Part shown: positions 778 to 25,668 of the stretch, in pieces
Layout: every line of letters begins with the position of its first letter
Numbering within the stretch: position 1 is the first letter of the stretch
Notes under the pieces: generated by a model
The model's database searches: none
What the model was told of the DNA's origin: nothing
Seen by the model: only the letters and a program-made list of their open reading frames with translations
Translations under genes and position numbers: made by a program
DNA from: Planctomycetales bacterium
Lineage (GTDB): Bacteria; 4484-113; JAFGCY01
Direction of reading: 5' to 3'
DNA: 32,000 nt
NCBI GenBank assembly: GCA_022646745.1
Contig: CP060262.1
Coordinates: forward strand, 780,001-812,000

Positions 778-1185
778 ATGCGTCTAGTAGTAGTTTTGAT
801 GGTGGGTCTGTTCCTGATGGCTCTGTGTGGCTGTCCCGCATCCGACAACGGTGGTAGCGATACCCCCGCCGTGACCGGTGGCACCTCTGATGCCGGCACC
901 GAAAACCCCTGCATGGGTGGTGAGGCTGCTGATGAGCACGCCGGCCATGACCACGCCGCTGGCGAGGGCCATGAGGACGGTGGCGAGAACCCGTGTGGTG
1001 AGAACCCCTGCGCGGGCGACAACCCCTGCAACCCCTGCGGCGGTGAGAATCCCTGTGGTGAAAACCCGTGTGGTGAGAACCCCTGCGGCGACAACCCGTG
1101 TGGCGACAACCCGTGTGGCGATAACCCCTGCGGCGACAACCCCTGCAACCCCTGCGGTGGCGGCGAGAACCCCTGCGGTCACTAG
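778..1185 (+). CDS. Small lipoprotein with a His-rich segment and about 14 tandem G-[E/D]-N-P-C pentapeptide repeats (Cys-rich, putative metal-binding)
   Basis: This is the in-frame ATG at 778 of ORF 679-1185, preceded by a GGGAG SD 6 nt upstream. The N-terminus MRLVVVLMVGLFLMALCGC is a signal peptide with a lipobox-like L-x-G-C. It is followed by HAGHDHAAGEGHED and then GENPCGENPCAGDNPCNPCGGENPCGENPCGENPCGDNPCGDNPCGDNPCGDNPCNPCGGGENPCGH. A strong terminator follows. Confidence 0.8.
   Translation: MRLVVVLMVGLFLMALCGCPASDNGGSDTPAVTGGTSDAGTENPCMGGEAADEHAGHDHAAGEGHEDGGENPCGENPCAGDNPCNPCGGENPCGENPCGENPCGDNPCGDNPCGDNPCGDNPCNPCGGGENPCGH
982..1176 (+). repeat. Coding tandem repeat, 15-bp unit (ggY gaN aac ccN tgY) with occasional 9-bp NPC units
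   Basis: Direct reading shows ggcgagaacccgtgt, ggtgagaacccctgc, then ggcgacaacccgtgt twice, ggcgataacccctgc and ggcgacaacccctgc. The periodicity keeps several frames open on both strands, which explains the ORF-track entries 747-1148(-), 784-1200(-) and 878-1192(+). Confidence 0.9.
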
Positions 1186-1288: not shown

Positions 1289-2017
1289 CTAATAATTGGG
1301 GCTGTGCACCTTTGATGGATCCGCCTTGCGGCGGTCCTTCACCGGCTCATCGTTGATGAGCAGGCCATCGCGGAAGCGCAGGATGCGCTTGCAGCACTGG
1401 GCCACCTCTTCCTCATGGGTCACGATCACAAGCGTGATGCCGCCGTCATTGAGCTCCTGGAAGATCTTCAGCACTTCCTCGCCACTCTTGGTGTCGAGGT
1501 TTCCCGTTGGCTCATCGGCGAGGATGATCGCCGGCTCATTCACGAGCGAACGTGCCACGGCGACACGCTGCTGCTGTCCGCCGGACAGCTCATTGGGCTT
1601 GTGGTGAATGCGGTCCCCCAGCCCGACCCGCTCCAGCGCACTCTGGGCACGCTTGCGCCGGTCACGCACGAAACCGCTGTAGACCATCGGCAGTTCGACA
1701 TTCTCAATCGCGGAAGTACGGGGCAGCAGGTTGAAGTTCTGGAACACGAAACCGATCTTGCGGTTCCGCACCCGGGCCAGCTCGCCGTCACGCATGCGTG
1801 ACACATCCGTCCCTTCCAGGCGGTAGGTCCCGCTGCTCGGGCGGTCCAGGCAGCCCATGATGTTCATCGCGGTGGACTTGCCGGATCCGGAGGTGCCCAT
1901 GATCGCCACGAACTCACCCTCCTCGATCGTGAAGTTCACGCCGGCAAGGGCGTGCACCTCATGCGTGCCCATCTTGTAGATCTTCTCAATGTCGATGAAT
2001 TCAATCAGCTTCTTCAT
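1289..2017 (-). CDS. ABC transporter ATP-binding protein, MacB/LolD/FtsE-type, stand-alone ATPase
   Basis: The start is placed at the internal ATG (2015-2017, MKKLIEFIDIEKIYK), 4 nt after the upstream stop; the longer ORF-track start would overlap the TolC-like gene. Walker A is GTSGSGKST. Also present are FQNFNLLPRTSAIENVELP, the signature LSGGQQQRVAVARSL, Walker B ILADEPTGNLD and the H-loop VTHE. Confidence 0.92.
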   Translation of the reverse strand: MKKLIEFIDIEKIYKMGTHEVHALAGVNFTIEEGEFVAIMGTSGSGKSTAMNIMGCLDRPSSGTYRLEGTDVSRMRDGELARVRNRKIGFVFQNFNLLPRTSAIENVELPMVYSGFVRDRRKRAQSALERVGLGDRIHHKPNELSGGQQQRVAVARSLVNEPAIILADEPTGNLDTKSGEEVLKIFQELNDGGITLVIVTHEEEVAQCCKRILRFRDGLLINDEPVKDRRKADPSKVHSPNY

Positions 2018-2021
2018 GATT

Positions 2022-3623
2022 TCAGAGCAGGTCCGCCAGAACCAGGATACTGCGGTAGGTTTCCTGGAAGGAAACCCGCGCCTGCAGGAGGGACAGTTCG
2101 GCTGCCAGCAGGTCGTCCTGCGCATCAATCACGTCCAGGGTGGTGGCCAGGCCGACGCGCTGGCGCTCCTCGGTGATCTTGAGGGTCTCGCGCAGCACCT
2201 GCACGTTCTTGATCTGCAGTTCGATGGTGCGGCTGCGAGTGTCCAGCTCGCGCTCCAGTGAACGCAGGGACTGCTTGAGCTGCAGCAGGGTCTCCTCGCG
2301 GTTGAGCTGCAGGTTCTCCAGGTCGAGCTGGGTCTGGGCCAGGCTGGCCTTCAGGTCGCGGTTGCGCCGGTCAAGCGACCAGCTGATGGAGGCCGTGATG
2401 CTCTCCTCATCAAGCCCGAGGATCGCATCGGCGAACTCGGCCTCGGCGGTGTTTCCCCGGCCGATGCTCAAACCGAAGTCCACGCGCGGCTCCATCTGGT
2501 CCAGCGTGGATTCACGGTTGATCTTGAGGTTGGCGATCGTCGTATCGATGCTGCGCAGGGTGAAGCTGGTGGCCTTCACGAGCTCCCACAGGTCCGGCGG
2601 CAGTTCATCGAAGCTGCTGTCCTCCAGCGCTCCCATGTCGAGTTCGATTTCGAACTCCTGCGGCAGGCCAACGAGTACCGTGAGCTGGTCCAGGCTGTCA
2701 TGGTAGCCCTGTATCGCTGCAATCAGGGCATTACCCTGGCTGATGACGGAATTCTCCGCCTGCAGCACATCGAGCGGGATGCCGAGGCCGACCTTGAGCC
2801 GTTCCATTGCGCGATCGAGCTGCAGTAGCGCAGTCTCAAGGTTCGCGCGGCGCACGTTGATTGATTCACGTGCCGCCATCGAGCGGTAGTAGCTGTTGAT
2901 CACATTGAGCTTCAGCTGGCGGATGTCATTGTCCAGGCTGTCGTAGCTGAGTTGCAGGCTGTTGCTTGCTGTGTACAGCGACAGGTTGTTGATGAATCGG
3001 CCACTGCCTCGCCTGAGCGGCTTCGTGTAGTTGAAGTTGAAGTTCTGGCTGTAGCTGTTGGAAAAGCCGCCGCCTCCCTTGGCACCACTCAGGCCGTAGG
3101 ACACGGACATCGCATCGCCATTGTCGAAGGGCTTGCTCCAGGTGGTCGAGGCACTGTAGGACTGGCTGTCAGTCCCGCCGGCGAAGGGCCACTCATCGGT
3201 GCTCGACCGGCTGGCGCGCAGGTCACCGCTCCACTGGGGATCCCAGCGGTAGTAGGTGCGGTCCACGCTGAAGTGGTTCTTCTCGATCGTGTTCTGCTGG
3301 TTGCGCAGGCCGTAATTGTTGGTGACGGCGAGCTCCAGCAGTTCCTCAAGCGAAACCAGCATCGCGCCATCATCAGAGAATGGTTCAGGTGTCAGGCGGA
3401 ACAGCTCAGCGGTTTCCATGCCGCTGTCCAGCGCATGCTGGAGTTCCTCGCCCCATGCCTTTCCCGTTTCCCCGGGTACAAGTCCAAATTCCTCTCCTGA
3501 AACCGTTACCGCCGCGTTCACAGATTCATCGCCTGCCAGCTCTTCAGCCCCAGCCGGCAGGGCAAGAATCAGGACCGTGGCAACGGGCAGCAGGCGCAGC
3601 GCAGTGCGCGTTGCTCCGTTCAC
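2022..3623 (-). CDS. TolC-family outer membrane efflux protein
   Basis: GTG start at 3623 with a GGAGGAGG SD 6 nt upstream. The signal peptide is LRLLPVATVLILALPAGA. LSLEELLELAVTNNYGLRNQQ and a second repeat half (LDRAMERLKVGLGIPLDVLQAEN ... RVGLATTLDVIDAQDDLLAAELSLLQARVSFQ) are typical of the two-repeat OEP/TolC architecture. Confidence 0.85.
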   Translation of the reverse strand: MNGATRTALRLLPVATVLILALPAGAEELAGDESVNAAVTVSGEEFGLVPGETGKAWGEELQHALDSGMETAELFRLTPEPFSDDGAMLVSLEELLELAVTNNYGLRNQQNTIEKNHFSVDRTYYRWDPQWSGDLRASRSSTDEWPFAGGTDSQSYSASTTWSKPFDNGDAMSVSYGLSGAKGGGGFSNSYSQNFNFNYTKPLRRGSGRFINNLSLYTASNSLQLSYDSLDNDIRQLKLNVINSYYRSMAARESINVRRANLETALLQLDRAMERLKVGLGIPLDVLQAENSVISQGNALIAAIQGYHDSLDQLTVLVGLPQEFEIELDMGALEDSSFDELPPDLWELVKATSFTLRSIDTTIANLKINRESTLDQMEPRVDFGLSIGRGNTAEAEFADAILGLDEESITASISWSLDRRNRDLKASLAQTQLDLENLQLNREETLLQLKQSLRSLERELDTRSRTIELQIKNVQVLRETLKITEERQRVGLATTLDVIDAQDDLLAAELSLLQARVSFQETYRSILVLADLL

Positions 3624-3685
3624 GGGTTGCCTCCTCCACTTATCCTCGTTCTAGGGGGACGCTAATCCACCTTTCAATGTTTCGC

Positions 3686-4564
3686 CTAAGGGCCTTCTGA
3701 TCCAGGTAGCTTGTAGCCGCTCTTGCTGAAGTCCAGCGAGACGACGTCTGATGCGAACTGCTCCACTGCCGGCGTGATGATCTTGCTGGTGACACCGAAG
3801 TAGATGCCGCCCATGATCAGGCTGTAGAGCAGGTAGCCGACGATAAGCTGGCCGAATCCAAGGTCAGTTGCCTGCATGAAGGCGATTGCATACAGGATGA
3901 CCGCGTATAGCATGATCACCGAACCCACTATGTAGAGAACGCTGTTCCCCATCAGTGAGGCGGGCTTGAATCCATCACCGAACACCGCGAAGCTGGAGAA
4001 GCTTGCGGCGGTATAGCAGCACCAGCCGATGGTGTAGAAGAACATCGGGTATGCGGTGGTGCTCATCATGTCGCTGAGTGAGACGGGCGAACCGAACATC
4101 TTCGCGGCCAGGAAAAAGACGAGACCGGCGATCACCCAGATGAACAGGCCGAACAGGCCAAGCCACAGCAGGTTGCTGTCGACCATGGTCTGGTACAGCA
4201 CATCAAGCTTGCCGGTCGCCCAGTTGGCCGCCACGTCGCGGTAGTTGCCATTGGGGTTGCTCATCGCAAGCTGCTTGCCGAACTCGACAGCGAATTCCTG
4301 GTATCCCGCGCTCATCTGCGCACGGTTCAGCACGAGCACAATCGAACCGATCAGGTGCCCGAGGAACACCACCGCGAATGAATAGAACGCGGTGTCGCTT
4401 TGGCCGTGGTGCTTCAGACTGGCACCGGGTGCAGTGACAACCTCAAAGAGATTGACAAAGAATTTCAGTCCGAGCACGACGAAGCTCACGAGCGTCAGCA
4501 CGACAAGTGCTATCAGCATCATGCCGGTTGTGTCGTCACCCTGCAGCATTGCTAGCGCAAACAT
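3686..4564 (-). CDS. Polytopic inner-membrane protein (about 6 TM), unknown function; possibly Yip1/YknW-like
   Basis: ATG at 4564 with an AGGGG SD 5 nt upstream. Six hydrophobic segments are readable: MMLIALVVLTLVSFVVLGL, AFYSFAVVFLGHLIGSIVLVL, LLWLGLFGLFIWVIAGLVFFLAA, AYPMFFYTIGWCCYTAASF, VLYIVGSVIMLYAVILYAIAF and LIVGYLLYSLIMGGIYFGV. A loop of about 50 aa follows TM2. The family assignment is not verifiable by eye. Confidence 0.75.
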   Translation of the reverse strand: MFALAMLQGDDTTGMMLIALVVLTLVSFVVLGLKFFVNLFEVVTAPGASLKHHGQSDTAFYSFAVVFLGHLIGSIVLVLNRAQMSAGYQEFAVEFGKQLAMSNPNGNYRDVAANWATGKLDVLYQTMVDSNLLWLGLFGLFIWVIAGLVFFLAAKMFGSPVSLSDMMSTTAYPMFFYTIGWCCYTAASFSSFAVFGDGFKPASLMGNSVLYIVGSVIMLYAVILYAIAFMQATDLGFGQLIVGYLLYSLIMGGIYFGVTSKIITPAVEQFASDVVSLDFSKSGYKLPGSEGP

Positions 4565-4607
4565 CGCAACCCCTACACACTAGGCCGGAATAAACGTCAA
4601 TTATAGC

Positions 4608-5780
4608 CTAGTTCAGTTTTATTTGAATGGTCTCATAGGCGTCGACACGCTTGACGCCTGAGTAATTGACCACCACCGTACCCGCAGCATAGTCATGCAG
4701 GCCGCGGAAGGCGGGGAAGAACCAGCTCAGGAACACGGCCGGCCCCTCGAACAGCACGATGAAGATCAGCGTGCGGATCAGCAGGCTGCCGAAACTGGCG
4801 AATTCACCCCACTCAGTCACGACCCGGATGCCCACCCAGCTCATGCCGATGCTCCTGTTCCAGAATGCAAGGGAAAGGAAGTAGTACAGGTAATCGGTGA
4901 TCGCAAACAGGATCAGCCAGTACGGGATCGGCTTCAGGTAGATGAAGGCATCGATGATCCTGCCCAGCTGGGTCCCGCCGCTGTCGTCATTGAAGAGGGC
5001 GAACAGCGGACTGCTGTTGCCTCCGGCGCCACCCATCACGAACAGGGCGCAAAGGACCAGGAAACGTGTGATTGTCCAGTCAATGCCAAGCGCCAGCAGC
5101 TTGCGCAGCGGATGGGCCGGCCGGCCCTCCATCCCGAAAGCACTGTTGCCGAGCTCGAACTCAGGCGGCTCCTCCGGCGCGATGTCCGGACCATAGTCCT
5201 CGCCACGCTCTGCGGCATCGAGGATCTCCTCCTCGCTGCGCACGAACATCGCCTCGGCGCAATCCACGCACAGCAGCTTGCCGCGCCGCACCGTCATCGC
5301 CTTCTGGCAGAAGAATGCCTGGCAGACCGGGCACTGTGTGGTGGCCACCTGGTCGGGATACTTGCGGCACATCACCTCGACCTGGCTGTCACGGTAGTAA
5401 TCACTTACGGCACTGTCAGCGTCACCCGGCTGGTCGGACTGGCGGCCCGATCGGCTGAAGTCCACATCGCCGGGCATTGCGTCGGGGTTGCTGAGGACCT
5501 GCTGCAGGAGCGAGACCTTCTCGGTCTCCGGCAGTTCCTGCCATTCCTCAGGCTCGAACCCGTCCGGGATGTCCTTGTCAAATTTTCGTTGCGGGCGCTG
5601 CTCGGCATTGTCATGGGCAGGCTTGTCCCCGCGCGACGAAGCGTCAGGGGAACTCCCGCTGCTGCCTTCCCGGCCGGTCGTTGGCTTGTCCCCTGCGCCA
5701 GACTGGCCGCCCTGGAGCAGCCTCCAGAGCTGGTTGTCCTCGTCGGGATTGCTCCCGGCGGGAGGTTGGTTGTCAATCAT
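4608..5780 (-). CDS. RDD-family membrane protein with a disordered N-terminus and a Cys-rich zinc-ribbon/B-box-like module
   Basis: The N-terminal ~125 aa are low complexity (P/G/S/D/E-rich). They are followed by C-x13-C-x2-C-x4-C-x13-C-x2-C (CRKYPDQVATTQCPVCQAFFCQKAMTVRRGKLLCVDC). The C-terminal half has the RDD pattern: R in HPLRKLLALGIDW, TM helices, and D in GLHDYAAGTVVV. Confidence 0.8.
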   Translation of the reverse strand: MIDNQPPAGSNPDEDNQLWRLLQGGQSGAGDKPTTGREGSSGSSPDASSRGDKPAHDNAEQRPQRKFDKDIPDGFEPEEWQELPETEKVSLLQQVLSNPDAMPGDVDFSRSGRQSDQPGDADSAVSDYYRDSQVEVMCRKYPDQVATTQCPVCQAFFCQKAMTVRRGKLLCVDCAEAMFVRSEEEILDAAERGEDYGPDIAPEEPPEFELGNSAFGMEGRPAHPLRKLLALGIDWTITRFLVLCALFVMGGAGGNSSPLFALFNDDSGGTQLGRIIDAFIYLKPIPYWLILFAITDYLYYFLSLAFWNRSIGMSWVGIRVVTEWGEFASFGSLLIRTLIFIVLFEGPAVFLSWFFPAFRGLHDYAAGTVVVNYSGVKRVDAYETIQIKLN

Positions 5781-5804
5781 TGGTACTGCGACCCTCCGGC
5801 ACCC

Positions 5805-6071
5805 TTAGAGTGCGTCAATCCGCTTCTTTATCTCAGCCTGCTCCGCCGTGTCGCGCGTGATCCGGTGCAGGCGCTCCCATGCATTCCTGGCCCTGTGGGC
5901 AAAGCCCTGCTTCTCGAAGGACTCCGCCAGGAAGCGGTGGGCTTCATGGTACTGTGGGTCCTTCTCCACCGCCTTCTTGAAGTATTCTTCCGCGCCTGAA
6001 TAATCACCGCGCGTGAAGGCAGTCTGCCCTTGGTCAAAGTACATCCTTGCGGTCAGGTCACTGCTTGGCAT
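5805..6071 (-). CDS. Small TPR-repeat protein
   Basis: ATG at 6071 with a GGGAG SD 5 nt upstream; the ORF-track start 6083 is a GTG. MYFDQGQTAFTRGDYSGAEEYFKKAVEKDPQYHEAHRFLAESFEKQGFAHRARNAWERL reads as two TPR units. The stop is 24 nt upstream of the RDD gene start. Confidence 0.7.
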   Translation of the reverse strand: MPSSDLTARMYFDQGQTAFTRGDYSGAEEYFKKAVEKDPQYHEAHRFLAESFEKQGFAHRARNAWERLHRITRDTAEQAEIKKRIDAL

Positions 6072-6097
6072 AGCTACTCCCACAGACTTGCATGTGC

Positions 6098-6173
6098 TGG
6101 TGGAGGAGATCGGATTCGAACCGACGACCTATTGCGTGCAAGGCAATTGCTCTGCCAGCTGAGCTACTCCCCC
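6098..6173 (-). tRNA. tRNA-Ala (anticodon UGC), CCA encoded
   Basis: The reverse complement folds by hand as GGGGGAG TA GCTC AGCTGGCA GAGC A ATTGC CTTGCAC GCAAT AGGTC GTCGG TTCGAAT CCGAT CTCCTCC A CCA. This gives a canonical cloverleaf with the G3:U70 alanine identity pair and anticodon loop C-U-UGC-A-C. Confidence 0.93.
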
Positions 6174-6280
6174 AGCACATGAACGGCCATAATTATACCG
6201 GAGTTTGCCTGCTTTGCCAGTCACCGCAATGCGCGCTGGCGTTCAGCCCAGTGCCAGTGCCTTGGGAATGAGGAGATTGC

Positions 6281-6649
6281 TCAGTCGCCCGTGACCTGGT
6301 GCACTGCTTCGATCAGCTGTTCGTTATCGATCGGCTTCTTCAGGGTGAGTGCCGCCCCGAGCATCCGTGCCATCGGCAGGTGGTCCAGCGAGATCTGCAG
6401 TCCCCCGCCGGAAATAGCGATGATCTGCACCTGCGGATACTCATTGCGCAGGCGGTTGATTGTCTCAAGCCCGTCTGATTCAGGCATGATGATGTCGGTG
6501 ATCACAAGGTCCGGAGCGAATTCCTCCATCACCTCGGAGATGTGCAGGCCGTTCGCTTCACTGCGGACCTGGTAGCCGTGGTGCGTGAGCAGGCGGGTAA
6601 GCATGCTGCGCACACCGCTCTCATCATCTATCACCAGGATCCTAGTCAT
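6281..6649 (-). CDS. Stand-alone response-regulator receiver domain (CheY-like)
   Basis: ATG at 6649 preceded by GAGGTGGAG; the ORF-track start 6655 is the GTG inside that SD. MTRILVIDDESGVRSMLTRLL ... DLVITDIIMPESDGLE ... IIAISGG ... LKKP supplies the DD / D / S-T / K receiver residues. There is no output domain. Confidence 0.88.
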   Translation of the reverse strand: MTRILVIDDESGVRSMLTRLLTHHGYQVRSEANGLHISEVMEEFAPDLVITDIIMPESDGLETINRLRNEYPQVQIIAISGGGLQISLDHLPMARMLGAALTLKKPIDNEQLIEAVHQVTGD

Positions 6650-7056
6650 CTCCACCTCATTGCCAGTGGCCCGTGTTTTTGCTTCTGCACAGAATTTACC
6701 GCTGCGGAATCCCTTGCGTTGGAAACTACGGTGAAACGATGGTTAGATGACAGTAAACACCGGCGCGAAAAGATCGGCGTTTTTCAGCAGCGGCAATAAC
6801 CAACCACACCAAGGGTCCGTCATGGTGATTGAAGTGTAGGTTGGCCGTGTAGCAGAGCCGGCCTGCCTCATCAGGGAAAGGGATCCAGGGGCCGGAACCT
6901 TGGCATGCTGGAACCGCCGGACGTAAAATGCCCAACCAGTGCCGGCGGGCCGGGACGGTAGAGCTGCATGCCTGTGGCAGCACCGTCCAGCCAGGGTGCC
7001 GGCCCCTCCCGAATCATCCGCCGTGGAACCATGGCGGCTGGTACCTTTAGACTGGA

Positions 7057-7572
7057 ATGAATTCCGGCGACCGGCAGATGCAGTTCGAGGCTCTGCTGAC
7101 AGCAGAGCTCTACCAGGCGGCCTGGGCCTACAGCTGCCGGCTTTGTGCGAACCCGCAAAGCGCCGAAGACCTGCTGCAGGAGGCACTGATTGTCGCGTTC
7201 ACCCGGTTCCACCAGTTGCGGGACAGGCAGACCTTCAAGGGCTGGCTGTTCTCCATCGTCCGCACCAAGTACATTGACCAGCGCCGCCGCCACATCAGCC
7301 GGCCGGCAACCCTGGAACTGCCTGTGCTCAGTGCAACGGAGAAGCGCAACCGGGATGCCGAGGTCGTCAACTCAGCGCTTTCGCAATTGCCGGAGAACCA
7401 GAGTGAACTGCTGTGCCTGTATTACTACGAGGAACTCAGTGTGAAGGAAGTGGCGATTGTGCTGGGCACAAGCGAAAACACCGTCAAGCAGCGGCTGCTG
7501 CGTGCCCGGGCGGCATTACGGCGGCTGCTGACACCGATGATTGATGCGACCGATACTTCGGCCTTGTTCTAG
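7057..7572 (+). CDS. ECF-type RNA polymerase sigma-70 family factor
   Basis: Region 2 is EDLLQEALIVAFTRFHQLRDRQTFKGWLFSIVRTKYIDQRRR. Region 4 is LPENQSELLCLYYYEELSVKEVAIVLGTSENTVKQRLLRARAALRRLL. The start is uncertain: ATG at 7057 or ATG at 7078. Confidence 0.88.
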   Translation: MNSGDRQMQFEALLTAELYQAAWAYSCRLCANPQSAEDLLQEALIVAFTRFHQLRDRQTFKGWLFSIVRTKYIDQRRRHISRPATLELPVLSATEKRNRDAEVVNSALSQLPENQSELLCLYYYEELSVKEVAIVLGTSENTVKQRLLRARAALRRLLTPMIDATDTSALF

Positions 7573-7581
7573 GGGAAAGAT

Positions 7582-8529
7582 GTGAGTCTCCATGAAAGGA
7601 TCATGCAGGACCGGATCAGCTCCGAGGAGCAGCTCAGCAGCGCGGAGCGCAGCCAGCTGGCTGCCGATCCCTCACTACGCAGCCTGATGGAGGAGAACCG
7701 GCTGCTGGAGCAGGCCCGGCCACGGGTCTGGCAGGCCCCGCAGCGCAGCCAGATGCTGCGCAATGTCTACCAGAAGTCGGCGCATGGCAAGGGAATCCTG
7801 TCGCTGTTCAGCATTAGCTTTGGCCCGCAGCGCCTGCGGGCCATCGCGGGCGGCGCTGCGATGCTGGTCATCCTTTTATCCGTCGGCCTGTACCTGCAGC
7901 AGTATTCCTCTCGCTGGCAACGCAGTGACGGATTCGAGATCAGCTACCGCCTGCAGCCTGATCCGGGCAGCGACCTGCAGTACTTCAGCAATCAGCTGGC
8001 CGGAGAGGCAAGCGCCATCGGTGAGTCCCACTTCGGCCGCGGCAGCGTGGAGCTGCTGGCACTGGAACCGGGGAATGACGGCATGGTGACCGCGGTACTG
8101 CGCCTGCGCAATGTCAGCCCACCGGACCTTGTGCAGTTCGATGCCGAGTTCAGCGGCCAGCGCAAGGTGGAGCGCACCGGTGTACGCCAGTCCAGCTGGT
8201 ACAGCAACCCGCGCCAGCCTGGACAATTGTACGAAAGCAGGCTGGTCACGATCAACAGCGATGCCGCCCTGTTCCCGCAGCAGTTCAGCCTGAGCGAGGT
8301 GCGTGAGCTGGACCAGCTGCTGCAGCTGATGAACGGGGAGGATGAGCTTTACATCCGTGGCATGAGCCTTGGCGACGGCAAGCGCTTCAGCCTCGGTGAG
8401 GTGGTCTCACTGGAGGTGGATGACGAAGGCAACCTGACAATCGAGGACAGTGCGGGCCAGCCAGCGGATGGCAGCAGCCCGCTTGAGTTCAGGGAAGTCG
8501 TATCAGGTGAGGAAGACGGAGCGGACTGA
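7582..8529 (+). CDS. Putative membrane-spanning anti-sigma factor (non-ZAS) with a periplasmic domain of about 200 aa
   Basis: It starts 10 nt after the sigma gene stop, at GTG 7582 preceded by AGGGGAAAG. It has one TM helix (AIAGGAAMLVILLSVGLYL) at about residue 95. No HxxxCxxC zinc motif is visible. The function is inferred from position only. Confidence 0.6.
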   Translation: MSLHERIMQDRISSEEQLSSAERSQLAADPSLRSLMEENRLLEQARPRVWQAPQRSQMLRNVYQKSAHGKGILSLFSISFGPQRLRAIAGGAAMLVILLSVGLYLQQYSSRWQRSDGFEISYRLQPDPGSDLQYFSNQLAGEASAIGESHFGRGSVELLALEPGNDGMVTAVLRLRNVSPPDLVQFDAEFSGQRKVERTGVRQSSWYSNPRQPGQLYESRLVTINSDAALFPQQFSLSEVRELDQLLQLMNGEDELYIRGMSLGDGKRFSLGEVVSLEVDDEGNLTIEDSAGQPADGSSPLEFREVVSGEEDGAD

Positions 8530-10179: not shown

Positions 10180-11007
10180 CTACAGTTCCCGGTTGACAAC
10201 GCGCAGCGCGCGGCCGACGATCTCGACCTTCTCGCCGCTGCGTTCGACCAGCAGGGTCGAATGGGCGTAGTCAGAATTGGCAGGGGACAGCGCCAGCATC
10301 CCCTCGACCTCCATGTAGCTGCGCAGCTTGATCTGGTTGCGGTCGTTGATCGCCACCATGCAGCCGTTCACGGGCTTGCTGGATGGGCTGATCACCACCC
10401 AGTCCCCGGCATTGACGATCGGCGCCATCGCGTTGTCATCCACACTGAGCACGAAGGCATCGGTGTCGTCGTTGCAGAAGGCCGCGGGCAGGTGGAAGCC
10501 CGCCTGCTCTCCGGCGATGTTCGTCAGCGGCTGCCAGTTGGATTCATACACCGGCAGGTTCATCTCACTCGACAGTTCGTCGTTGCCTGCACTATGGGTG
10601 AACTGCGCCGCCGGCAGGCTGGAGATCTGGCCGCGCTGGCGGATCTGGCTCGTGATGTATTCAAGGTTGCTGATGCCGCGGCGCAGCATGTCCATCAGTT
10701 CTGTGCCGTCACTGACCTCGACCAGCGGGTCGGCCTCGAAGCTGCTCAGTCCGCTGCCGCTTTCCACTTCGCTGACCGCCGGGGCAATCGACTGCACGAT
10801 GCCTGCCTTGCGCAGCAGGTGGATCTCCGGCACGTTGTAGGCCCGTGCCAGCTTGGCCAGTGTCTTGGCGGAGGGGGTGTAGATCCCGTTCTCGATCTGG
10901 CTGATGTAGCCCTGGGTGATCCCCGTGACGCCCGCAGTCTGCGTCATCGTCATGTTGTTCTTGATACGCAGGAGCTTGATGTAGTTTCCCAGTTCGTTTC
11001 CACGCAT
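10180..11007 (-). CDS. XRE-family HTH transcriptional regulator fused to a LexA/CI-type S24-like C-terminal domain lacking the nucleophile Ser
   Basis: The start is the internal ATG at 11007 with a GAAGGGG SD 6 nt upstream. The HTH is LGNYIKLLRIKNNMTMTQTAGVTGITQGYISQIENGIYTPSAKTLAKLARAYNV. The C-terminus VLSVDDNAMAPIVNAGDWVVISP ... VAINDRNQIKLRSY aligns with the S24 pattern V.GDSM.P.i..GD.v.v ... KR, but has Ala where the catalytic Ser sits. Confidence 0.8.
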   Translation of the reverse strand: MRGNELGNYIKLLRIKNNMTMTQTAGVTGITQGYISQIENGIYTPSAKTLAKLARAYNVPEIHLLRKAGIVQSIAPAVSEVESGSGLSSFEADPLVEVSDGTELMDMLRRGISNLEYITSQIRQRGQISSLPAAQFTHSAGNDELSSEMNLPVYESNWQPLTNIAGEQAGFHLPAAFCNDDTDAFVLSVDDNAMAPIVNAGDWVVISPSSKPVNGCMVAINDRNQIKLRSYMEVEGMLALSPANSDYAHSTLLVERSGEKVEIVGRALRVVNREL

Positions 11008-11171
11008 GTTAAACCCCTTCAGGCCAATAAAACGGACAAGATAAGAAAATGAAATCTCTACTGACGGACCGATATTGGTTTTTATTAGCCAATCAGAATA
11101 TACAGGATATCGGCAGGCCTGATCGGACATAAAGGAGCAAATAGAAGGCTAAACCGGGATTTAACCAATTT

Positions 11172-12338
11172 TCAGGAGCGGGGTTCCAGCAGCATCAGCA
11201 CGTCGTCATCCAGCCTTGCACTGTCCAGCAGGTGGAAGCGCTGGGCATCGTCAACGGACTGCAGCGCGAACGAGGGAGCAAATGACATCGCATCAGCACC
11301 GAGCAGCACTGGCGTATGGACCAGCGCCAGCTGCTGCAGCGCGCCCTGCCCAAGCAGGCTGGCTGCGACGGATGCCCCGCCCTCCACCAGCAGGCTAAAG
11401 GTACCGCGTTGCCACAATTCGGCCGCCAGCTCATGGAAGTCGATCCTGCCAGACATGCCGATTAGGGGCAGCAATTCAGCAGAACCCTGCCAGCCGGACG
11501 GTGCATGTTGCTGCAGTCCGGCAACGATCAGCCGCGGCCGGCCCTCGCGGAACTCCCCGGACAGATCACTCACCGCATAGCGATCCAGATCAGTCAGCAG
11601 TTCGAAACGCGGATCCAGCAGCACCCTGGTAGGATGGCGCAGTTGAACGCTCTCCATATCCGCCAGGTACTCAGCCAGCACATCCCGGCGCGTTGTCAAC
11701 TTCGGGTTGTCGGCACGAACCGTGCCGCTGCCGACGAGGATCGCGTCATGCTTCTGGCGCAGGAAGTGCGCATAGCCGTGGCTGCGCCGCCCGCTGAGCC
11801 ACTGGCTGTGCCCATTCGCGCAGGCGATCCGCCCGTCCAGCGAACTGGCCAGCTTGAGGCAGGTGAAGCAGGACTGCCGTTCCTTGTTGTGGATGAAGTA
11901 ATCGAGCTGCAGCCGTGCCTCATCCGCCAAGAGGCCGCTCTGGACTTCGATGCCGGCAGCCCTGAGCAGGCCACTGGCCTGGCCGTGGCTGCGCGGATCC
12001 GGGTCGTCAAAGGCGAACAGCACGCGTGAAACACCAGCTTCAACCAGGGCGGTCGTGCAGCTGCGGGGCTGGCGGCCATGGTGCGAGCAGGGTTCCAGGC
12101 TGACATAGGCCACGGCCCCCCGGCTGTCGCCGGCGGCGGCCAGTGCTGCCACCTCCGCATGCGGTCCGCCATAGCTTGCATGCCAGCCCTCCCCGATCAG
12201 GTTGCCATCGCGCACCAGAACGCAGCCCACCAGTGGGTTGGGGCTGACCTGTCCCAGCCCGCGGCGGGCCAGCTGCAGCGCGCGGTACATCCAGTACTCG
12301 TCGCTGCCGGCGGGATGGGGGTTCGTGTCAGTGATCAT
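11172..12338 (-). CDS. ribD: Bifunctional riboflavin biosynthesis protein: diaminohydroxyphosphoribosylaminopyrimidine deaminase / 5-amino-6-(5-phosphoribosylamino)uracil reductase
   Basis: The deaminase motifs are PNPLVGCVLV, GGPHAEVAAL and LEPCSHHGRQP. The C-terminal reductase half contains ACANGHSQWLSG ... ILVGSGTVRADNPKLT ... LLVEGGASV. Confidence 0.92.
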   Translation of the reverse strand: MITDTNPHPAGSDEYWMYRALQLARRGLGQVSPNPLVGCVLVRDGNLIGEGWHASYGGPHAEVAALAAAGDSRGAVAYVSLEPCSHHGRQPRSCTTALVEAGVSRVLFAFDDPDPRSHGQASGLLRAAGIEVQSGLLADEARLQLDYFIHNKERQSCFTCLKLASSLDGRIACANGHSQWLSGRRSHGYAHFLRQKHDAILVGSGTVRADNPKLTTRRDVLAEYLADMESVQLRHPTRVLLDPRFELLTDLDRYAVSDLSGEFREGRPRLIVAGLQQHAPSGWQGSAELLPLIGMSGRIDFHELAAELWQRGTFSLLVEGGASVAASLLGQGALQQLALVHTPVLLGADAMSFAPSFALQSVDDAQRFHLLDSARLDDDVLMLLEPRS

Positions 12339-12808
12339 CAGGGATGCGCCAGATTAAGCCAATCCACGGCCTTTGTCCAGCTGCCATCTCCGCTGATTGA
12401 AAACTGGCGGGCCTCACAGGCAGCCAGGTCCAGCAGCCACTGGCCGGTGTCGTATTGCATCGGCATGCGGGCCTCGACCACCTGGCGGCCCCAGCTGGGG
12501 TCGTCAAAGCTGAAGACAACCTCAAGGGTGTAACTGCCATCGCCATGCTTCTCCATGCCGGTGATGCGGGTGCGCTGGAGGCTGCTGCCATGTCCCTTGA
12601 GCAGCGGTTCGATGAGCGAGCGTGCCATTCCGCGCTGGACGGGGATGATCCCGGCCTCAAGCCGGTTCATGTCCTCAGAGCGCACGGCGTCCCCGATTTG
12701 CAGCACCGCACTGCGCACGGCTCCGCGCGTCATCAGCGGCGGCAGCAGCAGGCCCAGCAGGCCGGCAAGCAGCACGAATGCGGCAAGGATCCAGACGGTA
12801 CGGTTCAC
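12338..12808 (-). CDS. Membrane-anchored hypothetical protein
   Basis: GTG start at 12808. There is an N-terminal TM or signal anchor (VWILAAFVLLAGLLGLLLPPL) followed by a soluble domain of about 125 aa. The stop overlaps the ribD ATG by 1 nt (TGATG), which implies co-transcription. Confidence 0.6.
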   Translation of the reverse strand: MNRTVWILAAFVLLAGLLGLLLPPLMTRGAVRSAVLQIGDAVRSEDMNRLEAGIIPVQRGMARSLIEPLLKGHGSSLQRTRITGMEKHGDGSYTLEVVFSFDDPSWGRQVVEARMPMQYDTGQWLLDLAACEARQFSISGDGSWTKAVDWLNLAHP

Positions 12809-14846: not shown

Positions 14847-16451
14847 TCAGCCCTCTGTGCTCTCAGCCGTGGCCGGTTCCGGGGCACCGAGCACCTTTAG
14901 CTTCAGTTCCCGCGTCTGGCTGTACTTGCCCATGTCATCCACCACCCTGATGTGGATGGTGAAGTCCCCGGGCTTCGGGAAGTCGCGCGCCAGCTGGGGC
15001 ACTTCACTTTGCTCCTCGAAGTTGCCGTCCCCGTTCCAGTCCACTTCCCAGCCGACCACCTTGCCGTCGCGGTCCGTGCTCTTCGAAGCGTCCAGCTTGA
15101 CCGTCATCGGGGCAAAGCCCTGCTCCTCCGCCAGCTTCGCGACCGCCACCGGCGGGGCGTTCATGTTCACGAGGAAGTCATGCACCTTCTGCACGTCGGA
15201 GGGTGCAACGTATTCATCGCTGGTATGCAGGTGCTGGTTCTCCGCGCTGACACCGGGCAGGTTGCGCTCATGCCCGGGCTCACGCGCCCAGTAGCTCTGC
15301 AGGCTCATGCTCTCCATCTCGTCAAGGTTGTAGTCCTCCGCGTGCTGGGCCAGGGCCAGCAGCTGGTCCACGCTCAGGCTGGTCTTGACGCTTTCTGAGA
15401 ACAGCCGGGTGAGCTGGGGCAGCTTCGGTATCATCTGCGGGCTGGCCATCTTCTTCAGCACGAGCTTGATCACCTTCTGCTGGCGCTGCATGCGGCCCTT
15501 GTCGGCCATTGCATCATGGCGGAAGCGCGAGTACTGCATCACCTGCTCACCATTGAGATGCTGCAGGCCCTTCTTCAGGTTGATGTGCAGGCCTGCGGCA
15601 CGGTCGGTGTACTTCATGTCCTTCTCGACATCGACCTCCAGGCCCCCGAGAGCGTCGATCAGCTCCACGAAACCGTCGAATTCGATCACGACATAGTGGT
15701 CAAATTCGATGTCGAGCAGCTTCGCAATTGATTCCGTGGAGCGGTTGATTCCACCTTCGGTGAGATCCTGCTTGGCCTTGGCGTTCTGCATCTGCCCAAA
15801 GGCATATGTATGCCCTAGTTTGTCATAGCCGTGGCTCTTGCCTTCCTGGAAGTGCTGCACCCAGCCGTCCCGCGGCAGGCTGGCCAGGCGGATCTGCTTC
15901 TTGTCGAAGTCCGTGCTGGCGATCAGGATGCTGTCGCAGCGGTGGATAAGGCCGGGGTCCTTCTTTGTGGTCGGTGTATGGTCCAGGCCGAGCATCAGGA
16001 TGTTGATCCGCTCCTTGCCGTTGAAGCTCTCGGTCAGGGAAGCCTTCGGGCTGACGATGTTGCGTGCCAGCTTCACGCCCTGCTCCCAGCGGGTGTGGGT
16101 CTCGCCCGTGACCTGGTTTTCGATCGGCACCGTGAACCAGTTCCAGGTGAAGATGGCGGCCACTACCGCCAGGAAGATCGCGGGATAGAGCAGGCTGCTG
16201 CGCATCTGCAGCGGCTTGCGCTTCAGCTTGCGTCTGCTGCCACGGACTATGTTGCGGCTGAGCTTCGGGGACTGGGGAATATATGGAACGTATGGCTGTT
16301 CCGCAAGCGGCTCAACGGCGGGCTCAGCCTTGGCGGGAGCAGGTGCGCCGTTGGAGGCGGCAGCAACCGCATGCTGCGCATCGGCATGGCCGTTGTGTCC
16401 GGCTAGTTCAGTTCCCGGCTGGCCATCCGCTTCCTCAAGCTGGTCCAGCAT
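14847..16451 (-). CDS. LCP (LytR-CpsA-Psr) family protein with an N-terminal TM anchor and a C-terminal PKD-like domain
   Basis: The TM helix is LLYPAIFLAVVAAIFTWNWF. The LCP core is INILMLGLDH ... RCDSILIAS ... IRLASLPRD ... FDHYVVIEFDGFVELIDALGGLEVDV ... GLQHLNGEQVMQYSRFRH ... GRMQRQQKV. The C-terminus VKLDASKSTDRDGKVVGWEVDWNGDGNFEE ... GDFTIHIRVVDDMG is PKD-like. The start is ATG 16451, 10 nt after the yqeK stop; the alternative at 16502 would overlap yqeK. Confidence 0.85.
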   Translation of the reverse strand: MLDQLEEADGQPGTELAGHNGHADAQHAVAAASNGAPAPAKAEPAVEPLAEQPYVPYIPQSPKLSRNIVRGSRRKLKRKPLQMRSSLLYPAIFLAVVAAIFTWNWFTVPIENQVTGETHTRWEQGVKLARNIVSPKASLTESFNGKERINILMLGLDHTPTTKKDPGLIHRCDSILIASTDFDKKQIRLASLPRDGWVQHFQEGKSHGYDKLGHTYAFGQMQNAKAKQDLTEGGINRSTESIAKLLDIEFDHYVVIEFDGFVELIDALGGLEVDVEKDMKYTDRAAGLHINLKKGLQHLNGEQVMQYSRFRHDAMADKGRMQRQQKVIKLVLKKMASPQMIPKLPQLTRLFSESVKTSLSVDQLLALAQHAEDYNLDEMESMSLQSYWAREPGHERNLPGVSAENQHLHTSDEYVAPSDVQKVHDFLVNMNAPPVAVAKLAEEQGFAPMTVKLDASKSTDRDGKVVGWEVDWNGDGNFEEQSEVPQLARDFPKPGDFTIHIRVVDDMGKYSQTRELKLKVLGAPEPATAESTEG

Positions 16452-16461
16452 CCTGTTGTCA

Positions 16462-17073
16462 TCATCCGTCAATTCGTTCTTCCCGCAGTAACCGGCGCGC
16501 ATGCTCCCGGTATTCGTTGTAAAGGGCCACCGTATTAGATTCGATCATCAGGCCGCGTTCGATAATACTGCGCAGCTTTCCACTGGCAACTGCGAACACC
16601 GCGGCGTCGAGGTCCTGCCGGGAGATCTCCCGCACTTCCTCCACGCCAGGGAAGCTGCGGTCAGCACTGGTGTAGTCCGCCACGTAGAGCAGCTTCGAGA
16701 GCAGCCCCATCCCCGGGCGGCCGGTCACATGGTCACAGACCGCCTGCTCCACCTCAGGGTCATCAATCCCGAAGCGGCGTTTCAGCAACAATGCCCCGAC
16801 CTTGCCGTGCAGCAGCTCAGGGCTGTTTTCCTCCTCAGGGCTGACGGGCAGGCCACGCTCACGGGCGATGGCCAGCTGGTCCGGCACCGGCATCTTCTTG
16901 GCGTTGTCGTGCAGCAAGCCGGCGATTTCCGCCTGGTCCTCCAGCTGCGGAGCATGCAGCTGGGCCAGGCGCACGCAGGCAGTCGCAACCTTCACGCTGT
17001 GGTCATGGCGCTTGGCTCCCATGAAGTCCTTCAGCAGGTTCGTCAGGCGTTCGCGTTCGCTGTGGTCCAGCAC
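16462..17073 (-). CDS. yqeK: HD-domain protein YqeK (bis(5'-nucleosyl)-tetraphosphatase family)
   Basis: GTG start at 17073. HSVKVATACVRLA ... IAGLLHDNAKK ... LLHGKVGALLL ... AVCDHVTGRPGMGLLSKLLYVADYTSADR follows the H..HD..H..D layout typical of YqeK. It sits in the classic yqeK-rsfS neighbourhood. Confidence 0.85.
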   Translation of the reverse strand: MLDHSERERLTNLLKDFMGAKRHDHSVKVATACVRLAQLHAPQLEDQAEIAGLLHDNAKKMPVPDQLAIARERGLPVSPEEENSPELLHGKVGALLLKRRFGIDDPEVEQAVCDHVTGRPGMGLLSKLLYVADYTSADRSFPGVEEVREISRQDLDAAVFAVASGKLRSIIERGLMIESNTVALYNEYREHARRLLREERIDG

Positions 17074-25529: not shown

Positions 25530-25568
25530 TTGGAGAGTATAAGAGCGGGAGGAGCGAGAGGAGGAAGA

Positions 25569-25668
25569 TTAACCACAGAGAGCACTGAGGACACTAAGAG
25601 CACAGAAATGATTATGTATTCTTTGCCGACCAGAATTCCTCTGTGCTCTCTGTGTTCTCTGTGGTTAG
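25569..25668. repeat. Imperfect inverted repeat whose arms are 9-bp tandem units (RRCACAGAG / CTCTGTGYT); REP/MITE-like element
   Basis: The left arm is TTAACCACAGAG AGCACTGAG GACACTAAG AGCACAGAA (25569-25608). The right arm is CTCTGTGCT CTCTGTGTT CTCTGTGGTTA (25640-25668). The outer 12 nt TAACCACAGAGA/TCTCTGTGGTTA and the inner 9 nt GAGCACAGA/TCTGTGCTC are perfectly complementary. The stop codon of CDS 25612-26532 sits in the loop. Confidence 0.7.

Follow-up and report, generated by a model that had tools for sequence, protein, structure and literature searches.

An undescribed, lineage-restricted envelope module with a TolC-family channel and a MacB/LolD-class ABC ATPase behind a tRNA-Ala gene

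Genes for ABC ATPases and their permeases are usually adjacent, and for the MacB/LolD/FtsE class a split which is stable over a divergence as large as the one described below is unusual. In E. coli, lptB is encoded with lptC/lptA, apart from lptF/lptG, and Acidobacteria possess orphan duplicated FtsX permeases (ADOP family, NCBIfam TIGR03434). Protein genes co-transcribed behind tRNA genes from the tRNA promoter are found in the tufB operon of E. coli. A Yip1-family protein encoded with a MacB-type ATPase, YknW, is reported to modulate assembly of the YknXYZ pump (PMC4887032).

Here, we analyzed a locus from uncultivated bacteria (records labelled 'UBP7' or 'Planctomycetales bacterium') in a window of 32,000 nucleotides, the whole stretch of DNA examined. 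We conclude that the locus is a real, undescribed and lineage-restricted envelope module. An initial annotation had proposed such a module with unrelated membrane proteins in place of the canonical transmembrane and adaptor parts; the module itself is real and conserved in six neighbourhoods, but a replacement of permease and adaptor by its membrane proteins is disfavoured by the canonical ATPase.

Gene order and transcription

Five open reading frames were confirmed on the minus strand: the TPR gene (5805-6083 as ORF), the zinc-module/RDD gene (4608-5780), the gene of a 6-TM protein (3686-4564), the TolC-like gene (2022-3623) and the ATPase gene (1289-2017, counted from ATG). Gaps between them are 24, 43, 62 and 4 nt. 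Re-reading of the ORFs and of the terminator stem agreed with the initial annotation in each of these points. An HMM scan of the five proteins, which had also been proposed, gave TPR_2, RDD, OEP and ABC_tran in addition to a weak Yip1 match.

A part of the unit had been overlooked. The 197-nt 'intergenic' stretch 5' of the TPR gene contains a tRNA-Ala(UGC) gene (6098-6173; Rfam tRNA 70.5 bits, and ARAGORN) on the same strand as the protein genes, and the unit reads tRNA-Ala(UGC), TPR, zinc-module/RDD, Yip1-like, TolC-family channel, type VII ABC ATPase. In all 12 loci checked, the tRNA gene is located 14-43 nt upstream of the first coding gene, with position and strand retained in L007, L008, L011, L012, L014, L016, L018, L019, L020, L021 and L023. 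A consensus scan detected a promoter-like site, CTGGCA-17-TATAAT (6192-6220, minus strand; 10/12 matches), approx. 18 nt upstream of the tRNA gene, and a perfect TATAAT is present shortly upstream of the tRNA in nine of ten aligned loci. This site is likely the promoter of the whole unit. Since the tRNA gene has its own TATAAT and precedes the coding genes so closely, no space is left for a separate promoter, and the whole unit is, judging from spacing alone, most likely transcribed together from the tRNA promoter. Expression would be constitutive and housekeeping-like.

The TPR ORF is open back to a GTG at 6083, but the most likely start is the conserved ATG at 6071, preceded by a GGGAG ribosome-binding site. 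Both elements are kept across loci, and public gene calls give the resulting 88 aa (5805-6071). The protein matches TPR_2 (39.4 bits, cut-off 27) and TPR_16 (35.8 bits); it has no signal peptide and is predicted to be a small cytoplasmic protein.

At the other end, a bidirectional intrinsic terminator (1213-1235, both strands; 10-bp stem with nine G-C pairs, T-rich tails) is common to the ATPase gene and a small convergent lipoprotein gene (778-1185, plus strand; lipobox ...LCGC-P). Its product has a His-rich patch followed by (G-D/E-)N-P-C repeats with an array period of 15 nt, and no match to protein families was obtained. Four of the five lineages having DNA downstream of the ATPase (the window group, L018, L019 and L021) carry a lipobox-plus-Pro lipoprotein gene there, at a distance of 100-126 nt from the ATPase stop. 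This gene is possibly a sixth module member which the initial annotation missed.

Conservation in divergent relatives

In six neighbourhoods whose flanks are unrelated (the window/L001-L012 group, L018, L019, L021/L022, a JGI 3300056388 contig and L023), the RDD, Yip1-like, OEP and ATPase genes share one order and one strand. Such recurrence is far beyond chance, and the gene set is kept as a unit in divergent relatives: identity across neighbourhoods is 27-50% for the membrane proteins and 69-80% for the ATPase. In L023, identities to the window proteins are 34% (RDD), 27% (Yip1-like), 29% (OEP) and 69% (ATPase), all being homologous. Of the six neighbourhoods, L023 alone is without the TPR gene.

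This conservation of order at 27-50% identity already contradicts a reading of the genes as chance neighbours, or as cargo carried by a mobile island that inserted at the tRNA gene, which we regard as very improbable. An island would fit the tRNA gene at one end and the flanks that vary between lineages. However, the tRNA is always upstream, on the same strand and with a conserved promoter, no second copy of its 3' end occurs in the window, no integrase was found in any flank examined, and the G+C content is unremarkable.

One sublineage (JGI 3300075153 contigs and L015) carries TPR-RDD-Yip1-TolC with no ATPase downstream, and in L020 the TPR-RDD pair stands alone behind the same tRNA. Both arrangements would suit an ATP-independent functional unit made of the TPR, RDD, Yip1-like and TolC-like proteins, e.g., a regulated channel or a system for ion/metal handling, with a housekeeping ATPase, e.g., the lineage's LolD equivalent, merely sharing the tRNA-driven transcript. 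The higher identity of the ATPase would be as for a housekeeping enzyme, and the adjacent lipoprotein, Cys/His-rich or poly-acidic, suggests cation binding. Moreover, one RDD protein is reported to be a Na+(Li+,K+)/H+ antiporter (PMC5996927). On the other hand, the OEP-ATPase gap of only 4-50 nt in the six neighbourhoods points to co-transcription of the ATPase in all lineages but one, the ATPase falls below NCBIfam LolD cut-offs (234 vs. 308 and 204 vs. 360), and ABC systems generally show higher conservation of the ATPase domain. Hence, we consider an ATP-independent unit unlikely.

The ATPase, the channel and their membrane partners

The initial annotation of the last two genes as a TolC-family factor and a MacB/LolD/FtsE-type ATPase holds. 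The 533-aa outer-membrane factor matches Pfam OEP in two stretches (104.5 bits); it carries a signal peptide and is extended at the N-terminus by approx. 100 aa. Against TIGR01844 (TolC) it reaches 73 bits, under the cut-off of 225. The 242-aa ATPase (ABC_tran 119.8 bits) belongs to the MacB/LolD/FtsE (type VII) class, its top NCBIfam models being the MacB N-terminal part (275 bits), LolD (234 bits), DarD and FtsE. Walker A, Walker B, Q-loop, signature and H-loop motifs read as intact, and alignments with the PDB matches Spr0694 (3e-73), MJ0796 (9e-68) and MacB (5e-67) are gap-free. The helical subdomain is near-identical to those of MacB, Spr0694 and MJ0796; the segment after the Q-loop is ENVELPMVYSG here and QNVEVPAVYAG in E. 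coli MacB. By these features, the protein is classified as a canonical MacB/LolD-class motor. When 66 module-clade ATPases were compared with the 47 nearest outgroup ATPases, which were assumed from solved relatives to be FtsX-partnered, only 4 of 242 positions were clade-specific. Therefore, there is no sign that the ATPase switched its partner.

A permease and an adaptor are absent from the operon and the window, as had been noted before: Pfam scans of 24 further window ORFs (on the plus strand up to 29545) gave no FtsX, MacB_PCD or HlyD, and no FtsX or HlyD gene is found within approx. 10 kb in any of the six neighbourhoods. That the partners are encoded elsewhere in the genome is plausible, though somewhat short of an even chance, and this reading is at least as likely as a replacement.

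The 292-aa 6-TM protein had been described as being of unknown family. This description has to be abandoned, as Yip1 is the best Pfam family in 12 of 12 aligned family members (best E 1.3e-8), and the precedent of YknW, which the initial annotation had named, proves apt. Taken singly, the window protein reaches 13.5 bits (Pfam cut-off 28.6), and we classify it, from the family alignment, as a very divergent Yip1-domain protein. Six TM helices and a helical hairpin (aa 81-127) are predicted, and the AF2 model has a pLDDT of 80 and a pTM of 0.77. No known ABC permease family accounts for it: none was matched in Pfam/NCBIfam up to E = 1, Foldseek found nothing in the PDB below E = 0.68, and neither by sequence nor by fold was a PDB relative obtained.

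Whether the Yip1-like and RDD proteins stand in for permease and adaptor, as suggested initially, bears on a second alternative, namely a self-contained new ABC machine in which the Yip1-like protein, with or without RDD, partners the ATPase and reaches the TolC-like channel without an adaptor. The ATPase stays with these membrane proteins, without a permease, in six neighbourhoods despite their 27-50% identity. About 66 of the 120 best ATPase matches form a group of 240-260-aa proteins with at least 70% identity, at least 11 of which are tied to an RDD-family member by a longest contig of equal length. The Yip1-like protein differs from generic Yip1 proteins, with a family of only 28 clusters among 1.84 billion representative proteins. 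Candidate contacts would be the hairpin or the helix-break-helix after TM1 (aa 34-57); aa 31-57 are the most conserved stretch, with 17 invariant positions, and in the model they prolong TM1 and then form a short helix, a coupling-helix layout. However, despite an ATPase of 69% identity, L023 shows no special conservation of this stretch, and aa 36-58 are predicted to be periplasmic by K/R bias vs. cytoplasmic by Yip1 analogy. Furthermore, the membrane-facing helical subdomain of the ATPase lacks clade-specific remodelling, and no component is obviously a periplasm-spanning adaptor. Thus, the two membrane proteins are indeed conserved together, but their role as stand-ins is countered by the canonical ATPase, by the absence of any Yip1-like/ATPase fusion among the 28 matches in 1.84 billion representatives and by the sublineage whose four-gene core has no ATPase behind it. 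Altogether, a self-contained machine appears possible but rather doubtful.

In the 390-aa RDD protein, a disordered N-terminal tail of approx. 125 aa, which includes an LWxLL motif, precedes a zinc module (aa 135-178; 5247-5378, minus strand) and the RDD domain (aa 222-366), which forms the transmembrane part. The domain and the tail are as initially annotated, with Pfam RDD at 32.1 bits (cut-off 24.1) and a pLDDT below 50 for the tail in the AF2 model, in which the zinc module has 83-88. The proposed Cys6 zinc-ribbon is present insofar as six cysteines occur (138, 150, 153, 158, 171 and 174), but it is not the original form. In the family (43 members, 256-409 aa, all E <= 1e-62), most relatives keep C-x2-H...C-x2-C...C-x2-C...C-x2-C, with His/Cys at positions 141/161, which are Tyr/Ala here. 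The alignment thus marks the Cys6 ribbon as a decayed remnant of an ancestral eight-ligand, two-zinc module. Foldseek gave only non-significant LIM/B-box resemblances for it.

Our preferred reading of the whole, which we hold tentatively and at less than even confidence, is an envelope export or remodelling system, ATP-powered and TolC-dependent, with an ordinary motor. The FtsX-type partner of this motor in the membrane and, if there is one, the periplasmic adaptor would be encoded elsewhere in the genome, and the Yip1-like protein may be a membrane scaffold modulating assembly, by analogy to YknW in YknWXYZ. TPR and RDD proteins would associate into a subcomplex on the cytoplasmic side, with the conserved LWxLL helix of the disordered tail as the probable binding site of the TPR protein. 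The joint absence of the TPR gene and the LWxLL tail from L023 is counted in favour of this reading.

Comparison with known systems

The ATPase is of the same class as that of MacAB-TolC from E. coli (gap-free alignment to the MacB domain, 5lj9 and 5nik, E 5e-67 to 8e-67), and here, too, the gene of a TolC-family factor adjoins that of the ATPase. In contrast, an FtsX/MacB transmembrane domain with a periplasmic core domain and a MacA/HlyD adaptor are both lacking in the locus, the window and approx. 10 kb of flank in the six neighbourhoods, and Yip1-like, zinc-module/RDD and TPR proteins are found instead.

In YknWXYZ of B. subtilis and B. amyloliquefaciens, a Yip1-family protein and a MacB-type ATPase are encoded together, as here. 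However, that system also has the adaptor YknX and the FtsX permease YknZ, neither of which is at our locus, and its host has no outer membrane and hence no TolC. Further, an additional N-terminal TM helix distinguishes the Yip1-like protein described here, whose score is under the Pfam Yip1 cut-off.

The lptCAB split and the orphan FtsX permeases of Acidobacteria offer a precedent for an ATPase with a distant permease, and by analogy such an arrangement may apply here. In LptB2FGC, the gene of an envelope ATPase lies beside non-permease partners with the transmembrane subunits distant, although LptB is of another ATPase class and Lpt-family proteins are not present at our locus. ADOP indicates that the genes of type VII permeases and ATPases need not be linked and that one ATPase may serve several permeases; there, orphan permeases are known, whereas here only the orphan ATPase side was observed. 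Finally, the tufB operon of E. coli (thrU-tyrU-glyT-thrT-tufB) likewise has tRNA genes ahead of a protein-coding gene, but while a translation factor follows the tRNAs in that operon, it is a five-gene envelope module that follows the tRNA here.

Gene arrangement and the tRNA gene ahead of the module

On the minus strand, open reading frames for a TPR protein (5805–6083, with a conserved ATG inside this range), a zinc-module/RDD protein (4608–5780), a Yip1-like protein (3686–4564), a TolC-like protein of the OEP family (2022–3623) and an ABC ATPase (1289–2017, counted from its ATG) follow one another with gaps of only 24, 43, 62 and 4 nt. A terminator stem (1213–1235) of ten base pairs, all but one G-C, with T-rich tails on both strands, sits between the ATPase gene and a convergent gene for a small lipoprotein (778–1185, plus strand). 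These coordinates and the stem bear out the initial annotation, which had described five closely spaced, co-directional genes ending at a strong terminator. Two parts of the locus are absent from that annotation, namely the small lipoprotein gene and a tRNA-Ala(UGC) gene (6098–6173, minus strand), which lies 26 nt ahead of the conserved TPR ATG.

The tRNA-Ala(UGC) gene was found on the same strand, 14–43 nt ahead of the module's first gene, in each of the 11 other loci with DNA at this place, including the divergent loci L020 and L023. A perfect TATAAT is present shortly upstream of the tRNA in nine of ten aligned loci; the window copy has CTGGCA as its partner element, with 17 nt between the two. 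The spacer between tRNA and module can hold no more than a GGGAG ribosome-binding site, so that tRNA and protein genes most likely share one transcript, an arrangement with a precedent in the tufB operon of E. coli. Expression from a tRNA promoter suggests a constitutive, growth-tied role rather than stress-induced efflux. Apart from the tRNA itself, the Rfam search for riboswitches or leader RNAs returned only a sub-threshold match on the terminator. A mobile island integrated at the tRNA gene was considered and rejected, because the window holds no second copy of the tRNA 3′ end and the flanks encode no integrase.

Two loci deviate in detail. The pair tRNA-Ile(GAU)/tRNA-Ala(UGC) normally sits in rRNA spacers; in L023, tRNA-Ile(GAU) precedes tRNA-Ala(UGC) with no rRNA gene nearby. 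L019 is alone in having a hairpin (GGGCAGC-CTCT-GCTGCCC) in its tRNA-TPR spacer (approx. 3856–3898); no T-tract follows, and the hairpin may serve in processing or attenuation.

The remaining genes of the window represent ordinary chromosome (TIM, RibD, a LexA-like repressor, RodA/FtsW, iPGM, FlgK). Neither a permease nor an adaptor is among them, as the initial annotation had stated: a Pfam scan of 24 further ORFs, covering the plus strand up to 29545, gave no match to FtsX, MacB_PCD or HlyD. Upstream of the tRNA gene, a single-domain response regulator is encoded (6281–6655, minus strand); using tblastn, it was detected at 66–99% identity in L001–L004, L006, L007 and L009–L011, and was not found in L008 and L012. 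Being present in only part of the window group (L001–L012), it lies outside the module. Divergent from the module are an ECF sigma factor (7057–7572, plus strand) and a 315-aa protein without family match (7582–8529, plus strand), a possible anti-sigma factor; the metagenome contig JGI 3300056388 has another ECF sigma factor approx. 9 kb upstream of its module copy. Long ORFs of up to 434 aa are found antisense to real genes (4695–5999 and 2140–2706, both plus strand, and others), probably as a side effect of the G+C content of about 60%. When the ORF pair at 23997–25697 was scanned, the iPGM matches fell on the minus-strand ORF and none on the antisense ORF of 533 aa.

Conservation of the gene order

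Every sequence in our comparison derives from metagenome assemblies. The window sequence matches contig JAGRNS010000012 of the MAG GCA_020440665.1, and its near relatives are MAGs labelled “bacterium isolate UBP7 HKST-UBA01/03” and “Planctomycetales bacterium”. When conservation of the gene neighbourhood was checked, six neighbourhoods with unrelated flanks proved to share the order and strand of the RDD, Yip1-like, OEP and ATPase genes: the window group, L018, L019, the JGI 3300056388 contig, L021/L022 and L023. The TPR gene comes first in five of them, while L023 retains the four-gene set without it and its RDD protein has a short N-terminus. Compared with the window proteins, those of L018, L019, L021 and L023 share 48–62% identity for TPR, 34–50% for RDD, 27–38% for the Yip1-like protein, 29–45% for OEP and 69–80% for the ATPase. 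No FtsX or HlyD gene was found in the flanks of the six neighbourhoods (approx. 10 kb per side where the contig allows), no HlyD-family membrane-fusion adaptor in the window or any flank, and no FtsX/MacB_PCD subunit, as a companion gene or as part of the ATPase itself, in the scanned window ORFs or the six gene lists. We conclude that the locus very probably forms one functional, vertically inherited envelope module.

Smaller sets of these genes also occur. In one sublineage, represented by metagenome contigs JGI 3300075153 and by L015, the series TPR-RDD-Yip1-OEP is kept and no ATPase comes after OEP; its place is taken by a dockerin-type lipoprotein or by a gene on the opposite strand. This sublineage speaks for a reading which we nevertheless rank third and regard as unlikely, that of a four-gene core needing no ATP, with a housekeeping ATPase hitch-hiking on it. 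The impression of a non-conserved ATPase add-on, gained from three contigs of one sublineage, was discarded when divergent RDD and ATPase homologues revealed the ATPase in all six neighbourhoods. L020 has the TPR-RDD pair alone (793–2341), located behind the tRNA and followed by an ECF sigma factor, without Yip1-like, OEP and ATPase genes, so the pair can form an independent unit.

The convergent lipoprotein gene follows 100–126 nt past the ATPase stop codon in the window group, L018 (14660–14980), L019 (9125–9583) and L021 (10852–11238), in each of the latter three on the minus strand, and is absent in L023. All copies have a lipobox with Pro after it. The remainder of the protein carries a His-rich patch and (G-D/E-)N-P-C repeats in the window group and L019 and is poly-acidic in L018 and L021; the number of repeats differs even between L002 and L005, which are near-identical strains. 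No known family matched the lipoprotein.

Other genes recur around the module. Divergently upstream in L019 (241–3616) and L021 (2222–5675), whose neighbourhoods are otherwise different, lie genes for a FapA-domain protein and for one of approx. 650 aa without family match, and large PKD-domain proteins are found near the module in L018, L019 and L023, as well as in the window (14847–16502).

Properties of the encoded proteins

The initial annotation had assigned the ATPase to the MacB/LolD/FtsE type, and sequence comparison agrees with this (type VII) class: ABC_tran of Pfam is matched with 119.8 bits, NCBIfam scores are highest for the N-terminal part of MacB (275 bits), followed by LolD (234), DarD (230) and FtsE (212), and Walker A, Walker B, Q-loop, LSGGQ and H-loop are all present. 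An assignment to LolD itself is not borne out, as scores stay below the equivalog cut-offs (TIGR02211, 233.9 vs. 307.75; PRK11629, 204 vs. 360) and no FtsX-type gene (lolC/lolE or lolF) adjoins the ATPase gene. Among the best 120 matches, 66 are proteins of at least 230 aa with at least 70% identity, and matches below approx. 68% identity come from Chloroflexi and Anaerolineae. For no fewer than 11 of the 66, the longest contig has the length recorded for a member of the RDD family. The closest solved relatives are Spr0694 of S. pneumoniae (5xu1, 3e-73), MJ0796, the MacB domain, LolD, YbbA, BceA and FtsE, all of which partner FtsX-type proteins. Alignments to them are gap-free, and the membrane-facing helical subdomain after the Q-loop is nearly identical to that of MacB. 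No more than four positions (F7, A50, S114, P118) set the module clade apart, being conserved there and rare in an outgroup defined by sequence alone; accordingly, no trace of a remodelled docking surface is seen. These observations speak against the idea of a self-contained ABC machine of a new kind, which we consider doubtful; in its favour, the ATPase has remained stably linked to the membrane proteins of the module, with no permease, while these diverged to about 30% identity.

The initial annotation had listed the product of 3686–4564 as a six-TM protein of no assigned family. The six helices were recovered in the AF2 model, but a family can be proposed: judged by profile comparisons, this is probably a divergent Yip1-domain protein. 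The window protein alone reaches 13.5 bits against Pfam Yip1 (PF04893; cut-off 28.6), with a match spanning profile positions 2–170 of 173, and Yip1 is the top Pfam family in each of the 12 aligned members (best E 1.3e-8); three homologues carry a precomputed Yip1 match. In public records the protein is named “hypothetical”. The model (pLDDT 80, pTM 0.77) is all-helical, with one extra N-terminal membrane helix before the five of the Yip1 domain, a helical hairpin at residues 81–127 and a strongly conserved helix-break-helix at residues 34–57. K/R counts favour an N-in/C-in topology; the charge across TM1 and the topology of eukaryotic Yip1 favour N-out.

A known ABC permease, an identity that had been raised initially, was also considered for this protein and rejected. 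Pfam with E up to 1 returned only Yip1 and three marginal, unrelated families, and NCBIfam nothing. No PDB relative was found by sequence, and the best Foldseek hit of the model in PDB had an E-value of 0.68, there being no solved Yip1 structure for comparison of the fold; ABC-2 and other permeases remained at noise level (Wzm ABC-2 permease, TM 0.15). The family is small, with 13 clusters among 5.8 billion proteins in a word-indexed search and 28 among 1.84 billion representatives in an exhaustive profile search. None of the 28 matches is fused to an ATPase; their lengths range from 81 to 333 aa with one exception of 436 aa, which has an N-terminal extension of 176 aa and Yip1 as its only Pfam match.

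An RDD membrane domain had been proposed for the product of 4608–5780, and Pfam RDD (PF06271) is matched above its cut-off (32.1 bits vs. 24.1; aa 222–366). We found 43 homologues of 256–409 aa (weakest E = 1e-62). In an alignment of 26 sequences, D234, D296 and the motifs NR-x2-GMSW and RG-x-HD are invariant, as is the C-terminal motif NY-x-G-x-KR-x-D-x-Y. The N-terminal approx. 120 residues are predicted to be disordered, with short helices at a nearly invariant LWxLL motif (residues 15–22) and at residues 91–97. In the AF2 model (overall pLDDT 59), only the zinc module (pLDDT 83–88) and the first TM helices are usable. The six cysteines of the previously described Cys6 zinc-ribbon are present in the window protein, but they are a remnant of an eight-ligand module kept in most relatives, which has four ligand pairs (C-x2-H, C-x2-C, C-x2-C, C-x2-C); in the window subgroup, H141 is replaced by Tyr and C161 by Ala. 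Given a cross-brace arrangement, H141 and C161 would share one zinc site, in which case the site of C150, C153, C171 and C174 would be intact and the other decayed. No Pfam zinc finger matches the window protein, and Foldseek with the zinc module gave only weak LIM/B-box matches (E > 1).

The TPR protein (Pfam TPR_2, 39.4 bits) has no signal peptide and is therefore cytoplasmic. The TPR gene and the LWxLL tail of the RDD protein are both absent from L023, and this joint absence, a single data point, suggests that the TPR protein binds the LWxLL motif.

The TolC-like protein matches Pfam OEP with 104.5 bits in two stretches and the NCBIfam models of TolC and NodT below their cut-offs; no PDB relative was found by sequence at E ≤ 0.001. 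A TolC-family outer-membrane factor, as required in the tripartite pumps MacAB-TolC and DevBCA-HgdD, is thus present. Two different assemblies show its gene split or interrupted at one shared position near residue 165–180 (L007, 10964–12525; L012, approx. 10952–12515); an assembly error, a frameshift or a variable insert could account for this.

Possible function and comparison with known systems

To our knowledge, little has been established about what RDD proteins do, and next to nothing about the mechanism of bacterial Yip1 proteins. The module ties both families, in a single operon, to a TolC-family channel and a motor whose workings are well understood; each family thereby gains a concrete, testable setting. 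No literature linking RDD, Yip1 and TolC was found in the searched library. A PADLOC search for anti-phage defence gave generic ATPase-domain matches only and none for the Yip1-like, RDD and OEP proteins.

Split systems are known, since lptB is encoded apart from lptFG and Acidobacteria carry orphan FtsX permeases. Considering these precedents, the canonical ATPase, the lack of fusions and the detachable ATPase of one sublineage, our leading reading, held tentatively, is that an FtsX-type partner is encoded elsewhere in the genome. The Yip1-like protein would then be a scaffold beside this partner; as a Yip1 protein, YknW is an accessory to a pump of the MacB type (PMC4887032).

The doubtful self-contained machine would, in its full form, span the envelope: the MacB/LolD-class ATPase would work with the Yip1-like protein, with or without RDD, instead of FtsX, and engage the TolC-family channel without an adaptor. 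Expressed constitutively from the tRNA promoter, it would perform a core envelope function of the candidate phylum, possibly handling the adjacent lipoprotein or metal cations; this extended version we likewise judge improbable. Handling of lipoproteins or cations by the module is speculative, the hints being the neighbouring lipoprotein gene and a report of one RDD protein as a cation/proton antiporter (PMC5996927).

The module would be categorically new only if no FtsX partner exists genome-wide. If no FtsX serves the ATPase, the module would provide the first case of a type VII ABC motor with another membrane partner, and a TolC-dependent system without an adaptor; both novelties, if true, would change how such machines are defined. 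Even with a permease encoded elsewhere, the module would be a phylum-level signature, and an envelope operon led by a tRNA suggests a housekeeping role in a lineage without a cultured member. While the FtsX permease and the adaptor, which define both MacAB-TolC and YknWXYZ, are absent locally, the module has the ATPase class and the outer-membrane factor in common with MacAB-TolC, and the pairing of Yip1 and ATPase in common with YknWXYZ.
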